Source: a virus
Lineage: Duplodnaviria; Heunggongvirae; Uroviricota; Caudoviricetes
Reading direction: 5' to 3' (one strand)
DNA length: 18,569 bases
IMG/VR virus record: IMGVR_UViG_2660237930_000004
The position numbers and the translations under genes were made by a program. Shown piece by piece: positions 2,020 through 16,161 of the stretch. Within the stretch, counting starts at the first letter, position 1. Every line of letters begins with the position of its first letter. The notes below the pieces were generated by a model. That model did no database searches. It had not been told where the DNA came from and worked only from the letters and a program-made list of their open reading frames with translations.

Positions 2020-4418
2020 TAGATTGACTCCCCCATTTGTGCCTCAGTTAATTCTTTATGCCAAATGCGTAAATTTTTCACATGACCGAACAGGTGTCTG
2101 TTGCCACTGGATGATTGTCCACCGATATTAATATTACCGGCAGTATAACGTTGCAATGTATGCAGAGACGGGGAGCTGCCACCTAAAATTCCATCAACAA
2201 CAACCTGCAACTGTTTATCTTCTGTAAACTTAAAGCCAGTAACAAATTTCCTTTTCTCTCTATTCCCATATGCTTTATATTCTGTTTTTGTTCCTTTGCC
2301 ATTGGTGATAATTAGCCTTTTACCACGAGTGGTAAAACCAAAATACATATAACTTTCATCAGAAACTTCAGTCGTCGCCCCTGTAATTGAGATATTAAGC
2401 AAACGCGCAGAGCCTTCTAAATTAGGCATTTCAGAATCCCAATTAACATTAACTTCCATGAGAACACTAACTGGTGGAGTTGCCCAATTGAAAGGTATAG
2501 GTATGATTACCTGGTCACTTGCTCTCGTGGCACCGACCTCTGTTGTGATGATAAAAGATGACGCGTTTAGTCCCTTTTCGAATTGAGGGGTTGTTAACAT
2601 TAATTTATCGCCAGACTTGATTGATCGTTGATGTGCTCCAAACTCAAAACGCCCATACATATTTTTTGCTTCTGGTGATTTGTAGGTAAACTCAACACGA
2701 ATCCATCCATTAGACTCTCTGAATATGTTATAAGTTGCCGCCTCACCTCCAGAATAACTCAACATATCGCCAGTCTCGCAATCAATATATGCGCCAGCGG
2801 TCAGTGTGTTACTTGAGCCATCGTCGTTAACATATGATATTCTTGGACGCAACGTGATAATACCATCCCCACTTACTTTTTTAACTCTGCAGGATAAAGT
2901 AACTGATTCATTTGCCGAAACTGAAATAACCCTGGTATATCCAGTAGAAATTAATGTCGCCCTTTCAGTTGTGGATGTTTCTTTAACGCCAAACAAACCA
3001 TAACTGAAACCATACTCATCAACTCCCGTGGTAATAGTTAAGTTAGCAGTGTCATAGTTCCACGATACTGGTGTATTCGTATAAGAAAAAGTATTCGTTC
3101 TCTGACCTTCAATGAGCAGACCATCTTTTTCAAAACGTGGTTCATTTATCGCTGATTCAGCAAAACACCCAGACTTATCTATATACGTTGCAGTTGACGC
3201 CCTGGTAAATGAAACAACCTTTTCAGACGGCAATGCAATAACATCGTCACCAACTGTGATGCTCTTATATCCAGGAGCAAACCCGGTAATCATATCCAGT
3301 GAATCGTTAAACGGTATCCACACCTCAGGTAACGGCTGTAAGACATATTTATACGGCTCCGCAGCCTGGCTTGCGTACTCTCTGGCTGCATCTTCGCTTG
3401 CTTTAGCTGCCGTCTGGCTTGCTGCCGATGCTTTCGCTGAGTTCGCAGCCGCTGTTTCGCTCGCCTTTGCGTTGGTTTCACTGGTTTTTGCTGCTTTTTG
3501 ACTGTTAGCTGATGCAGTGGCAGAAGCAGCCGCCGCACTTGCAGAACCAGCTGCAGCACTCTCGCTTTCAGCTGCTGCAGCCTGACTACTTTTCGCCGCA
3601 GTTTCACTGGCTTTGGCATTCGTTTCGCTGGTCTTCGCTGCTGTCTGGCTGGACTTTGCGTTAGTTTCACTCGTCTTCGCAGCTTTCTGGCTGTTAGCCG
3701 CAGCAGTTGCTGATCCGGCTGCTGAAGTCGCAGAACCGGCCGCCGCACTCTCGCTGTCAGCTGCTGCATCCTGACTGCTTTTCGCCGCAGTTTCACTGGC
3801 TCTGGCATTCGTTTCGCTGGTTTTCGCTGCCGTCTGGCTGGACTTCGCGTTGGTTTCGCTCGTCTTTGCGGCTGTCTCACTGTTTTTCGCGTTGGTTTCT
3901 GATTTTTTGGCTGCAGTCGCGGAGTTTGCCGATGCAGTCTGTGAGGCCGCTGCCGCCTGTGCGCTGTTAGCTGCGTTCGTTTCTGAGGTTTTCGCCGCGT
4001 TCTTCGATGATGCCGCTGCTGTTTCGGATTTCTTTGCCGCCGCTGCGCTCTGAGAGGCGGCTTCAGCGTTGCGTGCCGCTTCTTCCACCATTTCCTCAAA
4101 ACGACGCAATGCCTCCGGCATGACATCATCTTCCGTCATGGCACCGAGAAAATCATTCAGCGTCCCCGGCTTAGAATCTTCATACACGGTGATGGTCCCG
4201 GCATGTGAAGGCGGAAAACCTTCAACCAGCAGGATAACGCTGTACTGGCCATACTCAACATCCATGCTGTAACGCCCGGCTTCATCCGGATTTTCAGAGG
4301 CCACCGTGTTCACCAGTACCGTGGTGCTGTTACGCTTTGCCTTCAGTTGAATAGTGCAGTTCTGTATTGGTTTTCCCGCACCATCTTTCAGCACACCTGA
4401 GATTTTTACTGCTGCCAT
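2019..4418 (-). CDS. stf: Side tail fibre protein: lambda Stf-like N-terminus, Ala/Ser/Thr-rich repeat shaft, non-lambda C-terminal domain with LamG/ConA-like lectin signature
   Basis: N-terminus MAAVKISGVLKDGAGKPIQNCTIQLKAKRNSTT... matches lambda Stf from memory. Likely start is ATG at 4416..4418 (GGAG RBS) rather than the GTG at 4424 used by the track. C-terminus ends ...GNRHLFGHVKNLRIWHKELTEAQM, typical of LamG_3/ConA-like jelly-roll domains. Sequence below about 3300 is visibly more AT-rich. Confidence 0.8.
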   Translation of the reverse strand: MAAVKISGVLKDGAGKPIQNCTIQLKAKRNSTTVLVNTVASENPDEAGRYSMDVEYGQYSVILLVEGFPPSHAGTITVYEDSKPGTLNDFLGAMTEDDVMPEALRRFEEMVEEAARNAEAASQSAAAAKKSETAAASSKNAAKTSETNAANSAQAAAASQTASANSATAAKKSETNAKNSETAAKTSETNAKSSQTAAKTSETNARASETAAKSSQDAAADSESAAAGSATSAAGSATAAANSQKAAKTSETNAKSSQTAAKTSETNAKASETAAKSSQAAAAESESAAAGSASAAAASATASANSQKAAKTSETNAKASETAAANSAKASAASQTAAKASEDAAREYASQAAEPYKYVLQPLPEVWIPFNDSLDMITGFAPGYKSITVGDDVIALPSEKVVSFTRASTATYIDKSGCFAESAINEPRFEKDGLLIEGQRTNTFSYTNTPVSWNYDTANLTITTGVDEYGFSYGLFGVKETSTTERATLISTGYTRVISVSANESVTLSCRVKKVSGDGIITLRPRISYVNDDGSSNTLTAGAYIDCETGDMLSYSGGEAATYNIFRESNGWIRVEFTYKSPEAKNMYGRFEFGAHQRSIKSGDKLMLTTPQFEKGLNASSFIITTEVGATRASDQVIIPIPFNWATPPVSVLMEVNVNWDSEMPNLEGSARLLNISITGATTEVSDESYMYFGFTTRGKRLIITNGKGTKTEYKAYGNREKRKFVTGFKFTEDKQLQVVVDGILGGSSPSLHTLQRYTAGNINIGGQSSSGNRHLFGHVKNLRIWHKELTEAQMGESI
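3430..3970 (-). repeat. Tandem repeats of about 189 bp (63 aa) within stf, with nested KTSETNA-type 21-bp sub-repeats
   Basis: Protein segment KAAKTSETNAKSSQTAAKTSETNA[RK]ASETAAKSSQ...SESAAAGSA...NSQ occurs twice in tandem plus partial copies. At DNA level ctgactactt/ttcgccgcag at 3582..3600 recurs at 3771..3790 (offset 189). Boundaries approximate. Confidence 0.7.
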
Positions 4419-6044: not shown

Positions 6045-6121
6045 TTTTCCAGCAGCTCCTTGCCGAGATGGGACTTTTTCGCCAGCAGCTCCTTTTCCAG
6101 CAGCTCCTTGCCGAGATGGGA
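6045..6121. repeat. 29-bp exact direct repeat with 48-bp period inside J (in-frame repeated [10 protein letters not shown] peptide)
   Basis: Positions 6045..6073 and 6093..6121 are identical; protein reads [35 protein letters not shown]. Confidence 0.7.
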
Positions 6122-6245: not shown

Positions 6246-8624
<2,379 letters not shown>

Positions 8625-8681: not shown

Positions 8682-9331
8682 TCAACGACCAATCACCACA
8701 ACCTGACCACCATCTCCTTCATCTGCCGTGCTGATCTCCTGCGAAATCACCCGTGACCCCACGCGCATTTCACCGTACAGAACCGGCAGAACATTGCCCT
8801 GGGCAACCATGTTATCCAGTGAGGAGAAATAGGTGTTCTGTTTGCCGTTATCCGTTGTCTGTGTACGGGGAGTTCTGGCTTTCGGTGCCAGCATCTGCGC
8901 CACACCACCGAGCACCATACTGGCCCCCGCACCATACATTCCTGTAATTGCGGCAGCCCCCAACCAACCTGCAGGGTTCCACCATGCCACCGCAATCAGC
9001 GCCGCCCCCAGCACAGCCGAGAAAAAGCACCGCCACTTTTGGCTCCCGCCAGACGCGGCACAATGTGGATCACGGCACCATTTGCCAGCGGTTCATTAAG
9101 ACGGGCTGATAATTCAGTTTCACCTGCATCACGCCCGGCAATACGTACCTGATACCAGCCGTCGCTCAGTTTCTGACGAAACGCCGGAAGCTGTGTGGTC
9201 AGCGCCCGGACTGCTTCGGCCCCCGTTTTCACACGCAGGTCGATGCGGCGGCCAAATCGTTGTAAATCCCCGTAAAGGCAGATTCGCGCCATGCCCGGTG
9301 ACGCCAGAGGGAGTGTGTGCGTTGCTGCCAT
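8682..9331 (-). pseudogene. I: Tail tip assembly protein I, interrupted by a frameshift (true pseudogene or homopolymer sequencing error)
   Basis: ORF 8996..9331 encodes the I N-terminus (MAATHTLPLASPGMARICLYGD...) and stops at ...SGGAFSRLCWGRR*. ORF 8682..9014 in the -1 frame encodes the I C-terminus (...LGGVAQMLAPKARTPRTQTTDNGKQNTYFSSLDNMVAQGNVLPVLYGEMRVGSRV...VVIGR). Frame switch maps to about 9004..9030, containing an A5 run (plus strand 9022..9026). Confidence 0.8.
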
Positions 9332-11005: not shown

Positions 11006-13569
11006 CGTCCACCTCCGGAGAACAGACCACCATCACGCATCTGCCCGGTCACAACATCCATTGCCGCCTTACGGGCTACGTCATAAACAGCCTTCAGCGC
11101 CTGTGGCCCTATCTGACCGTTCGTGCCGTCGTTGTTAATCACCACATGGTTATTCTGCTCAAACGTCCCGGACGCCTGCGACCGACTGTCCGCCATGCTG
11201 CCCGGTGTACCGACATAACCGCCGGTGGCATAGCCGCGCATAAGCCGGTAAAGATTCCCCACGCCAATCCGGCTGGTTGCCTCCTTCGTGAAGACAAATT
11301 CACCACGGTGAACAATCCCCGCTGGCTCATATTTGCCGCCGGTTCCCGTAAATCCTCCGGTCGCAAAATGGAATTTCGCCGCAGATGCCTGAATGGCTGT
11401 ACCGCCTGACGCTGATGCACCGCCAATGACACTGCCGACACTCCCGACGATCCCCACCATTGCCTGCTTAAGCAGAATTTCTGTCATCATGGACAGCACG
11501 GAACGGGTGAAGCTGCGCCAGTTCTGTTCACTGCCGGTCAGCATCGCCGCCATATTCTGTGCAATACCATCAAAGGTCTGCGTGGCTGCACTTTTTACCT
11601 GCGACATACTGTCCGTGGCGCTCTCTTCCCACTCACTCCAGCCGGACTTCAGGCCTGCCATCCAGTTCCCGCGAAGCTGGTCTTCAGCCGCCCAGGTCTT
11701 TTTCTGCTCTGACATGACGTTATTCAGCGCCAGCGGATTATCGCCATACTGTTCCTTCAGGCGCTGTTCCGTGGCGTCCCGCGCTGCCTGCCGGTCAGTC
11801 AGCCCCCGGTTTTTCGCCTCAATGGCTGCCCGTTTTGCCCGTTGCTGCTGTGCGAATTTATCCGCCTGCTGCGCCAGCGCGTTCAGGTGCTCCTGATACG
11901 TGACCTTATCGCCAAGTGCAGCCAGCTGGCGTTTGTACTCCAGCGTCTCATCTTTATGCGCCAGCAGGGATTTCTCCTGTGCGGACAGCTGGCGACGTTG
12001 CGCCGCCTCCTCCAGTACCGCGAACTGACTTTCCGCCTTCCACAAATCCCGGCGCTGCTGGCTGATTTTCTCATTCGCTCCGGCATGCTTCTCCAGTGTC
12101 CGGAGTTCTGCCTGAAGCGTCAGCAGGGCAGCATGAGCACTGTCTTCCTGACGATCGCCCGCAGACACTTTCACGCCGGACTGCTTCGGCTTTTTCAGCG
12201 TCGCTTCATAGTCCTTTTTCGCCGCCGCCATCAGCGTGTTGTAATCTGCCTGCAGGATTTTTCCGTCTTTCAGTGCCTTATTCAGTTCCTCCTGGCGGGC
12301 GGTATATTTCTCCAGCGGTGTCTGCAGGCGTTCGTAAGCCTTCTGCGCCTCTTCGGTATATTTCAGCCGTGATGCCTCAGACTCGGCCCGATCTTTTGCT
12401 GCCATCTCACTGGCCTTTTCAAGATCTGCCTGCAACGTGGCGGCTGAAAGCCCAAGTCGCGCATTCTCTCTCTTCTCCCATGCCCCCCGGAGATTGGCAA
12501 GAAATGCTGACGTTTTACCGCGCCGGGGGCTTCGGCTCTGATACCACTGCCATTTTTTATCCGCTTCATCAAAAGCAAGCTTTTCAGCTTTGGCGAGCAT
12601 ATCTGCAGAGGAGTCCGGGCGACCAATATCCAGCACCGCATCCCACATGGATTTGAATGCCTGTGCAGTCTTGTCTGCCCAGGTCTCCAGCGTACCCATG
12701 TTATCTTTCAGTTTACGGGTCTGGTCATCAAACCCTTTCGTTGCGGCCTCGTTCGCCGCCTGCAATGCCCCGGCCCCATCGCCGGAACGCTGCAACTGAG
12801 CAACATACGCAATCTGTTCCGCCGTCACGTTATGGAACTGGCGCGCCATCGCCGTCAACCCAGACGTCGGGTCAGTGGTCAGCTTCCCGAAGGCTTCAGC
12901 GACCTTGTCCACCTCCACGCCGGATGCAGAGGAGAAACGCGCCACACTCTGGCTGATTGCCTCAAACTGCTCACCACCACGCACACCGGCATTCACCAGC
13001 GCCGTCAGTGACTCGCTGGTCTGGTTAAACGTCAGCCCTGCCGCCTGCCCGGATCTGGACAGGGCCAGCATACGATCTGCCGTCAGTCCCGCCTGATTAC
13101 CGGAAAGGACCAGCGTTTTATTGAAATTGGACAGGGTTGAGTCACCCTGATACCAGGCATACGCCAGCGCACCGGTCGCCACCGCCAGCGAAGTGATACC
13201 AACCATCGGCAGGGTGATCGCACCGGCAAGCCCCCTGAACATGGGGATCATCCCGCCGAAGGAGTCCTTCACCTGACCACCCTGTTGCAGCAGGATGAGC
13301 CACGGATTCGGCCCCCCTGCAAGCTGCGTGGCCACGTCGGTGAACTGCGCAGGCAGCATACGCATGGCAGCTTTATACTGCCCGACGGAAATCCCCGCTT
13401 TCTGTGCAGCCAGCGCCTGCCGGTTCATTGACTGTTCAACGACTGCCGCTGTTTTTTTCGCATCACTTTCCGTACCGGAAAAATGACGCCTGACTCTGGC
13501 CATCTGCTCGTCAAATCTGGCCGCATCCAGACTTAAATCAACGACCAGATCGCCTACCGGTTCAGCCAT
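11002..13569 (-). CDS. H: Tail tape measure protein H
   Basis: 855 aa, recognised as lambda H from memory (MAEPVGDLVVDLSLDAARFDEQMARVRR...); long coiled-coil middle and Gly-rich C-terminus typical of tape measure proteins. Confidence 0.9.
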   Translation of the reverse strand: MAEPVGDLVVDLSLDAARFDEQMARVRRHFSGTESDAKKTAAVVEQSMNRQALAAQKAGISVGQYKAAMRMLPAQFTDVATQLAGGPNPWLILLQQGGQVKDSFGGMIPMFRGLAGAITLPMVGITSLAVATGALAYAWYQGDSTLSNFNKTLVLSGNQAGLTADRMLALSRSGQAAGLTFNQTSESLTALVNAGVRGGEQFEAISQSVARFSSASGVEVDKVAEAFGKLTTDPTSGLTAMARQFHNVTAEQIAYVAQLQRSGDGAGALQAANEAATKGFDDQTRKLKDNMGTLETWADKTAQAFKSMWDAVLDIGRPDSSADMLAKAEKLAFDEADKKWQWYQSRSPRRGKTSAFLANLRGAWEKRENARLGLSAATLQADLEKASEMAAKDRAESEASRLKYTEEAQKAYERLQTPLEKYTARQEELNKALKDGKILQADYNTLMAAAKKDYEATLKKPKQSGVKVSAGDRQEDSAHAALLTLQAELRTLEKHAGANEKISQQRRDLWKAESQFAVLEEAAQRRQLSAQEKSLLAHKDETLEYKRQLAALGDKVTYQEHLNALAQQADKFAQQQRAKRAAIEAKNRGLTDRQAARDATEQRLKEQYGDNPLALNNVMSEQKKTWAAEDQLRGNWMAGLKSGWSEWEESATDSMSQVKSAATQTFDGIAQNMAAMLTGSEQNWRSFTRSVLSMMTEILLKQAMVGIVGSVGSVIGGASASGGTAIQASAAKFHFATGGFTGTGGKYEPAGIVHRGEFVFTKEATSRIGVGNLYRLMRGYATGGYVGTPGSMADSRSQASGTFEQNNHVVINNDGTNGQIGPQALKAVYDVARKAAMDVVTGQMRDGGLFSGGGR

Positions 13570-15163: not shown

Positions 15164-15586
15164 TCACATTTCATAGGTAATGACATACGTCAGATCGGCT
15201 GAACTCCACAGGCCCGCATCATCGTCGCGTCGGTAGTCATAGCCACTGGCCACCATACTGGTGATCAAATCTGACAGTGCCGGAATATCGCTCATCACCG
15301 GATAAATCCGGGACTCCATCCACGAATCCAGCTCTGAATCCGGCACCTGAGCAGGCAGCTCTGAATCCGGCACCTGAGCAGGCAGGAAAACTTCAATATG
15401 CAGCTCCGCCTGCCAGGTATCGCTGTCCAGCTCTTCGCCCGTGTATTCAGCGCCGGTGAGATAAACGGCAATTGCCGGAAAATCCGCCTCATCAAAAACA
15501 GCGGGGCGACCATCAAAAAGCGTCGCCCCGGTGTCATGCTTCTCCAGTGCATCCAGTACGGCTGCACGGAGTTCAGTATGTTTCAT
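15164..15586 (-). CDS. U: Tail terminator protein U, with a 9-aa in-frame duplication
   Basis: 140 aa ([36 protein letters not shown]...); contains [19 protein letters not shown] from the 27-bp tandem duplication. Lambda U is 131 aa by my recollection. Confidence 0.9.
15331..15384. repeat. Perfect 27-bp tandem duplication (2 copies) inside U
   Basis: gctctgaatccggcacctgagcaggca at 15331..15357 is repeated exactly at 15358..15384; in frame. Confidence 0.95.
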
Positions 15587-16161
15587 CGCTTTATTACCAT
15601 TCTCAGTTGATGCTGCAGCGCATAGCCCAGCTCTTTCGGAAGACGCTCACGCCGTATCCGTTCAATATTCTGTTTAAACGCCGTGGTCAGTGGCACCGCC
15701 ATCGGGATTTTCACCACATCAATGGGGTAACGGTTTTTCCCGGCCACACGCTGCATAACATGCCAGCGGCCATTTTTCAGTTGCTGAATAAACGCGCCGG
15801 GAATACGACGGTTTCCCACCACAAGCACGCTGCCGCCACCTTTCAGGGCTGAACGCTGCCCCTTTTTACGACGCCTGCGTCGGGACAGGACAATCCGCGC
15901 GTTACCCAGCTTTATTACGGGCAAATCCCCCCGGTTAACCTTGATTCTGGCCTGCGGATTTTTAACCGTGGCCCTTTTCAGCCTGGCCCTTTCCTTTACC
16001 AGTTTCCGGCGTACCTTTGTCTCACGGGCAACCTGTGACGCCGACTGCGATATCGCGGATGAAGCAACGCGGTTAATGGCCATTGCGGCGGCACCAGGCA
16101 CCGCCGTTTTGCTGATACGGCTGAGGTTTTCAACGGCCTGCTCAAGACCTTTTATGGCCAT
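15583..16161 (-). CDS. Z: Tail completion protein Z
   Basis: 192 aa, recognised as lambda Z from memory (MAIKGLEQAVENLSRISKTAVPGAAAMAINR...); 4-nt overlap with the U start. Confidence 0.9.
   Translation of the reverse strand: MAIKGLEQAVENLSRISKTAVPGAAAMAINRVASSAISQSASQVARETKVRRKLVKERARLKRATVKNPQARIKVNRGDLPVIKLGNARIVLSRRRRRKKGQRSALKGGGSVLVVGNRRIPGAFIQQLKNGRWHVMQRVAGKNRYPIDVVKIPMAVPLTTAFKQNIERIRRERLPKELGYALQHQLRMVIKR

Follow-up and report, generated by a model that had tools for sequence, protein, structure and literature searches.

The tail terminator of phage lambda, gpU, which hexamerises on the tail tube and stops the polymerisation of V, is a protein of 131 residues that is represented in the PDB by 1Z1Z, 3FZB and cryo-EM entries. 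In the in situ structure of lambda, it consists of a five-stranded sheet flanked by two helices, and two of its loops have been assigned a partner: the O-loop (residues 25-37) binds gpFII, while the E-loop (residues 45-58) binds gpV (PMC10721106). The canonical architecture of the family comprises 130-133 residues, with an uninterrupted junction between strand beta3 and helix alpha2 and with a single occurrence of the motif PAQVPDSEL, which corresponds to residues 69-77 of lambda gpU. This segment includes Asp74, the residue that has been replaced in the engineered protein gpU-D74A (PDB 3FZ2, with the substitution named in the entry title and PAQVPASELD in the chain sequence). Edmonds and co-workers reportedly found in 2007 that acidic residues near helix alpha2 are required for both the Mg-induced hexamerisation and the activity of the protein.

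The window, that is, the whole stretch of 18,569 nt that was analysed, forms the last 18.6 kb of contig AOQL01000047.1 (31,990 nt) of the E. coli assembly GCA_000397425.1. It comprises the late region of a lambdoid prophage adjoining sitABCD in a B2-like E. coli. The U reading frame matches Pfam family PF06141 with 203 bits (cut-off 25), in two stretches that are split by an insertion, and its product is 97% identical to lambda gpU with a single gap of nine residues (E=1e-79 and 3 substitutions with respect to 1Z1Z/3FZB). According to gene calls and Pfam, the gene order on the contig is Z-U-V-G-T-H, with U located between Z and V and upstream of G, T and H. On the grounds of the family match, the identity to 1Z1Z/3FZB and this synteny, the assignment as a lambda-type tail terminator U, made in the initial annotation, is confirmed. 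The likeness to lambda gpU extends over all 131 residues, the gene order and the subunit fold, whereas the difference consists of nine extra residues between strand beta3 and helix alpha2. With a length of 140 residues and a doubled motif, the protein departs from the canonical architecture at this junction, and in every other respect that was tested it conforms to the gpU family (Table 1).

Table 1. Gene U, its neighbours and the insertions found in the window (positions are those of the window)
Feature	Position	Strand	Remarks
Gene J, complex in-frame insertion of 48 nt	6074..6121	-	Private to the assembly; 19-nt partial copy + 2-nt filler + 27-nt copy
Gene J, perfect tandem duplication, 28 nt x 2	6269..6324	-	Private to the assembly; frameshift, resulting in ORFs of 792 and 356 aa
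Gene I, patch of +2 nt	9019..9028	-	Private to the assembly; frameshift, 78 + 110 aa versus 182 aa in relatives
Gene H (tape measure), +3 nt (AAG)	12577..12579	-	Private to the assembly; 855 versus 854 aa
Gene V, major tail tube protein, 246 aa	14416..15156	-	Rare allele, in three sibling assemblies only
Gene U, lambda-type tail terminator	15164..15586	-	140 aa here versus 131 aa in every relative
Copy 1 in plus-strand order, unit CAGCTCTGAATCCGGCACCTGAGCAGG	15329..15355	-	On the coding strand the second PAQVPDSEL, residues 78-86
Copy 2 of the 27-nt unit	15356..15382	-	On the coding strand the first PAQVPDSEL, residues 69-77
CAG microhomology, 3 nt	15383..15385	-	Continuation of the repeat run over 3 nt; codon of L68 on the coding strand
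Gene Z, tail completion protein (PF06763)	15583..16161	-	Upstream neighbour of U

Tandem Repeats Finder detects a repeat with a period of 27 at 15329-15385 (2.1 copies, 100% matches, 0 indels), and a repeat search of the window returned the two copies in U as 100% identical. The junction between copy 1 and copy 2 reads ...GAGCAGG/CAGCTCTG.... As the run of matches continues into CAG, the boundaries of the duplication are ambiguous by 3 nt. The placement at 15331-15384 that had been given at first is equivalent, its 54-nt register lying 2 nt further on than 15329-15382. Its description as a perfect in-frame 27-bp tandem duplication is borne out by both the repeat detection and the translation of the reading frame, and the insertion amounts to exactly nine in-frame residues, seen as one 9-residue gap when the 140-residue product is aligned with its 131-residue counterpart. 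What is doubled in frame is the PAQVPDSEL segment of lambda gpU. The number of perfect 27-nt tandem duplications expected by chance in 18.6 kb is about 1e-12, and a chance repeat was therefore rejected as origin.

Perfect head-to-tail copies in combination with a flanking short direct repeat are the signature of replication slippage, and this signature is present in U: two copies of 27 nt, 100% identity, no filler and the 3 nt of CAG microhomology. It could be imagined, therefore, that the duplication is an isolated, real slippage event in the U gene of a decaying (cryptic) prophage, which would be neutral since J and I are broken, and that the other oddities of the contig are unrelated assembly errors. 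A clean and perfect copy between CAG and CAG is what slipped-strand mispairing predicts, and at face value J and I are indeed frameshifted in the same window. Moreover, U genes with an internal duplication do occur in databases, as exemplified by the homologue P0046 discussed below.

When mapped on the gpU structure, the insertion falls at the junction of beta3 and alpha2, where Asp74 is located. The 140-residue protein, as modelled by AlphaFold (mean pLDDT 77), keeps the gpU fold, with TM-scores of 0.84-0.90 to 3FZ2, 3FZB and 8IYD. In this model, strand beta3 is formed by residues 57-68, followed by a 16-residue loop (69-84) and by a helix that begins at residue 85, and the extra nonapeptide is predicted to reside in an enlarged beta3-alpha2 loop, the pLDDT of which is below 50 at residues 72-77. 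In an alignment with 27 homologues (67-98% identity), no other stretch proved as conserved as the duplicated peptide, which includes Asp74: L68, Q71, D74, S75, L77 and D78 are invariant in all 27. None of these homologues has an insertion at the beta3-alpha2 junction, and each has the motif in single copy. The suggestion that the nine residues might be neutral in a surface loop is not sustained by this location, in the family's most conserved stretch and including the very residue that is mutated in 3FZ2. The same conserved PAQVPDSEL segment is affected in gpU-D74A, although that protein has a point substitution made in the laboratory, while here the whole nonapeptide, Asp74 included, is present twice. 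If the insertion is real, impaired ring formation or head joining would be more likely than neutrality.

The duplication was not encountered in any other source that was searched. All 91 megablast matches in phages span 574 nt of the 601-nt query, and the same holds for the best 60 places listed in complete E. coli genomes (574 of 601 nt). Among 3,542 matching E. coli genomes, none exceeds about 95.5% identity, the value expected without the 27 nt, and the best of these matches are identical to the query except for a 27-nt gap. Neither 185,579 species-representative genomes nor IMG/VR nor the JGI metagenomes contain the exact 54-mer. A codon-degenerate pattern for the DSEL/PAQV junction had 0 matches in the viral and genome collections; its 6 matches in metagenomes are due to chance, lying outside U genes in unrelated, stop-filled contexts that lack an ORF. 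Among about 15 billion proteins, the exact 140-residue protein was found on a single contig, AOQL01000047.1 itself, and the Logan read-derived assemblies do not contain it. A variant common to other phages or prophages was thus rejected, with megablast, 54-mer scans, the degenerate pattern and the homologue alignment all being negative. Comparison with U homologues and related phages (27 and 91, respectively) gave the duplication in none. The initial annotation had called the event recent; this holds in the sense of a private event, as no other genome, phage, metagenome contig, homologue or sibling assembly has the duplication. Independent support for slippage was found neither in sibling assemblies, nor in other genomes, nor in read-derived assemblies.

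One homologue of U deserves separate mention. P0046, an E. coli protein of 185 residues in NCBI that is found on 2 contigs, has an internal tandem duplication of 54 residues (A70-D122), which starts at the same AQVPDSEL motif. It is the sole high-scoring homologue of odd length, and its 54-residue duplication is a different one; a natural variable-number tandem repeat in U was rejected on this basis. The remaining long U homologues are N-terminal extensions or frameshift fusions.

The duplication in U is not the only one of its kind. The whole contig was rebuilt and then compared with near-identical genomes, and this revealed about 20 private short tandem duplications or insertion patches on its 32 kb, a density of about 0.6 per kb, with lengths of 7-48 nt and in some cases 1-6 nt of filler. 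With respect to the near-identical prophage of UPEC132, the window has 11 substitutions, 5 insertion events and 0 deletions. The 28-nt duplication in J has no flanking microhomology and was found neither in the siblings nor in any of the E. coli genomes examined, while the 48-nt insertion in the same gene derives from adjacent sequence containing CAGCAGCTCCTT. The exact 855-residue H protein exists on AOQL01000047.1 only.

The chromosomal part of the contig (contig positions 1-13420) is affected in the same manner. Perfect duplications of 27 nt (sitD), 18 nt (sitC), 34 nt (ycgX, with a shift of frame), 24 nt and 17 nt are found here, next to less regular events: a 33-nt insertion in sitA composed of a 32-nt copy and 1 filler base, a 33-nt insertion in ymgI composed of a 27-nt copy and 6 filler bases, and a scrambled +9 patch in sitB. 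In non-coding DNA (contig 1738-1946), five duplications (23, 23, 14, 7 and 25 nt) are crowded into 250 nt, and as a result 501 nt here have 409 nt as their counterpart in 3,226 genomes. The flanking chromosome also has two larger deletions. When one copy is taken out, the sequence again matches reference genomes exactly, and the duplication-bearing SitD and SitA proteins are, again, found on AOQL01000047.1 only. The initial annotation took the duplication in U for an isolated biological event, but the contig has about 20 such private events, several of which lie in host chromosomal genes. Such a number of look-alikes, host genes included, points to a cause at the level of the assembly and not to tail biology.

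Not every repeat in the window is of this nature. In the gene for a side-tail-fibre/head-spike fibre, positions 3451-3884 consist of a 189-nt unit in 2.3 copies with 83% identity, in which periods of 42 nt and 21 nt are nested. This repeat is natural, since it is gap-free in near-identical reference genomes.

The spectrum of the private events is odd for natural slippage. Nearly all are insertions, with lengths concentrated at 14-34 nt and four instances of 27 nt, and several junctions have little microhomology or carry 1-6 nt of filler. About half of the junctions have 0-1 nt of microhomology, while some have 5, 5 and 3 nt, which is above chance. A fixed-k de Bruijn overlap as sole cause is not supported, as the lengths vary from 7 to 48 nt, even though 27 nt recurs. 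Furthermore, lengths that are multiples of 3 are found in 9 of the 12 private insertions in genes, compared to 1 of the 7 in non-genic DNA (binomial p=0.004, Fisher p=0.017). The messy events, in which copy and filler sum to 33 or 48 nt, are part of this in-frame excess. Neither a model of artefact nor one of real mutation accounts for it.

The rare allele of V has been instrumental in finding the sibling assemblies. It exists on three contigs only, AOQK01000083.1, AOQL01000047.1 and AOQM01000036.1, which have consecutive accessions. In the AOQK and AOQM siblings, which have this prophage as well, the products of U, H, I and J measure 131, 854, 182 and 1131 residues, and indels of the kind seen in AOQL are absent from both when they are compared with UPEC132 over 20.7 kb and 11.7 kb; the sole gap is one of 1 nt at the end of the AOQM contig. 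As the sibling sequences are clean, none of the insertions in the window is shared within the lineage, and all are private to AOQL. In a control with four further assemblies of the locus, these were found to differ from one another by 1-4 SNPs with 0 gaps over 10-21 kb. The events are therefore confined to one assembly, in which they are numerous, similar to each other and extend to conserved host genes, as expected for an artefact.

The siblings share a peculiarity of another type. In the prophage, the private SNPs of AOQK, AOQL and AOQM are nearly all A:T>C:G, and it is always the T that lies on the plus strand of the window (positions 7527, 7530, 12527, 13310 and 15071). This pattern could be due to a mutT-like mutator with strand bias or to systematic T>G errors in the consensus.

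For an isolated slippage event in U, these comparisons are unfavorable. The siblings carry a single-copy U, and the lesions in J and I, invoked to render the duplication neutral, belong to this private class of events and are missing in the siblings, so that the decay of the prophage is itself doubtful. In addition, this explanation singles out one of about 20 look-alikes as real, with nothing to distinguish it from the others. In spite of its clean CAG-flanked copies, we consider it highly improbable.

A further indication comes from elsewhere in the same assembly. The 16S rRNA gene of E. coli usually has a length of about 1.54 kb. The sequence AOQL01000076.469.2061, from GCA_000397425.1, measures 1,593 nt. 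In a preprint on 16S sequence space, it is the sole one among 948 E. coli 16S sequences that lies beyond the 99th percentile (10.1101/2025.09.04.674223). The 16S gene of this assembly thus appears to carry similar insertions, and it is very unlikely that these would be real in an essential multi-copy gene.

Taken together, the 27-bp duplication in U is probably an artefact of assembly or gap closure in a single draft E. coli assembly of low quality from 2013. This reading is based on the private nature of the event, the many similar events on the contig including those in host genes, and the clean state of the siblings and near-identical genomes. It is also based on the frequency of the events (about 0.6 per kb) in combination with almost no SNPs, the nearly insertion-only spectrum with its fourfold recurrence of 27 nt, the presence of filler or of no more than 0-1 nt of microhomology at several junctions, the crowding of five events into 250 nt and the aberrant 16S sequence. 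As to the mechanism, short overlapping pieces may have been abutted during contig joining or gap closure with the overlap left in and, in some cases, a few junk bases inserted, which would produce head-to-tail copies of 7-48 nt. In that case, the strain would in truth have an ordinary U gene of 131 codons, as in the sibling assemblies.

The events resemble the duplications that gap closure causes in short-read drafts, in that they occur in one assembly, in coding and non-coding DNA regardless of function, with lengths typical of k-mer or read overlaps (7-48 nt), with junk filler at some junctions and with clean siblings. A literature search for documented artefacts of this type gave nothing directly citable. 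They differ from such duplications by the excess of in-frame lengths in genes, which is unexpected for errors of this kind and is not predicted by the artefact. Some other observations also argue against it. The siblings, presumably from the same submitter, are clean, and a pure pipeline artefact would consequently have to be specific to this sample, for example through lower coverage or more gap filling. At some junctions, the microhomology (5, 5 and 3 nt) exceeds the chance expectation. Finally, the duplication in U is, taken by itself, indistinguishable from a genuine slippage event.

A different thought is that a real, genome-wide burst has taken place. A duplication-prone replication defect in the AOQL isolate would have produced hundreds to thousands of tandem duplications of 7-48 nt, of which the in-frame ones would preferentially survive in genes, and the duplication in U would be one of many. 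Candidate defects are a loss of flap processing, as in yeast rad27/FEN1 or with the 5'-nuclease of E. coli Pol I, or a mutator allele of Pol III alpha. The absence of all events from the siblings, indicating a cause specific to the AOQL sample, fits such a burst, as do the enrichment of in-frame lengths in genes compared to non-genic DNA and the 3-5 nt of microhomology at some junctions. The duplications of the rad27 type have a similar size range to the 14-34 nt observed here, and the one-stranded A:T>C:G bias in the private SNPs of all three siblings has the look of a mutT-type defect.

With a flap-processing mutator, the events share the dominance of insertions, the tandem duplications of tens of nucleotides and, in part, the flanking repeats. 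They differ from it in that many junctions are devoid of flanking repeats and some have filler; with about half of the junctions at 0-1 nt of microhomology and several untemplated fillers, they are unlike flap-type duplications. Moreover, the density is far too high in relation to the SNPs: about 0.6 events per kb would correspond to about 3,000 per genome beside very few SNPs, which is hard to reconcile with viability. All four sit genes and, apparently, the 16S rRNA gene have been hit, and five events are concentrated in 250 nt. Nor is the in-frame bias explained, as selection cannot purge frameshifts in dispensable genes at near-zero SNP divergence. Finally, not a single duplication-carrying protein is encoded by any of the Logan read-derived assemblies. 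A genome-wide burst therefore seems rather unlikely. Its most explicit form, in which AOQL is a true tandem-duplication hypermutator within a mutT-like (A:T>C:G) lineage, with thousands of duplications of 7-48 nt over the genome, the in-frame ones kept in genes, and with a real expansion of U by nine residues at the Asp74 junction, is quite improbable.

An artefact of the assembly has consequences for how the gene and the genome are to be read. Most likely, the doubled beta3-alpha2 junction does not exist in the organism. The duplication then has little bearing on phage biology, as U is an ordinary lambda-type tail terminator with an insertion that is unsupported beyond one draft assembly. Were the sequence taken at face value, the frameshifts in J and I would still leave the prophage tail-defective, and the change in U would therefore be without phenotype. 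The assembly GCA_000397425.1 itself is a warning case, with dense short tandem duplications that extend to sitABCD and, apparently, to the 16S rRNA gene, and any scan that makes use of it will yield spurious "novel alleles" and pseudogenes as well as outlier sequences. If, on the other hand, the events are real, the interest would pass from U to the strain, which would be a hypermutator of the duplication type with an unexplained in-frame bias.
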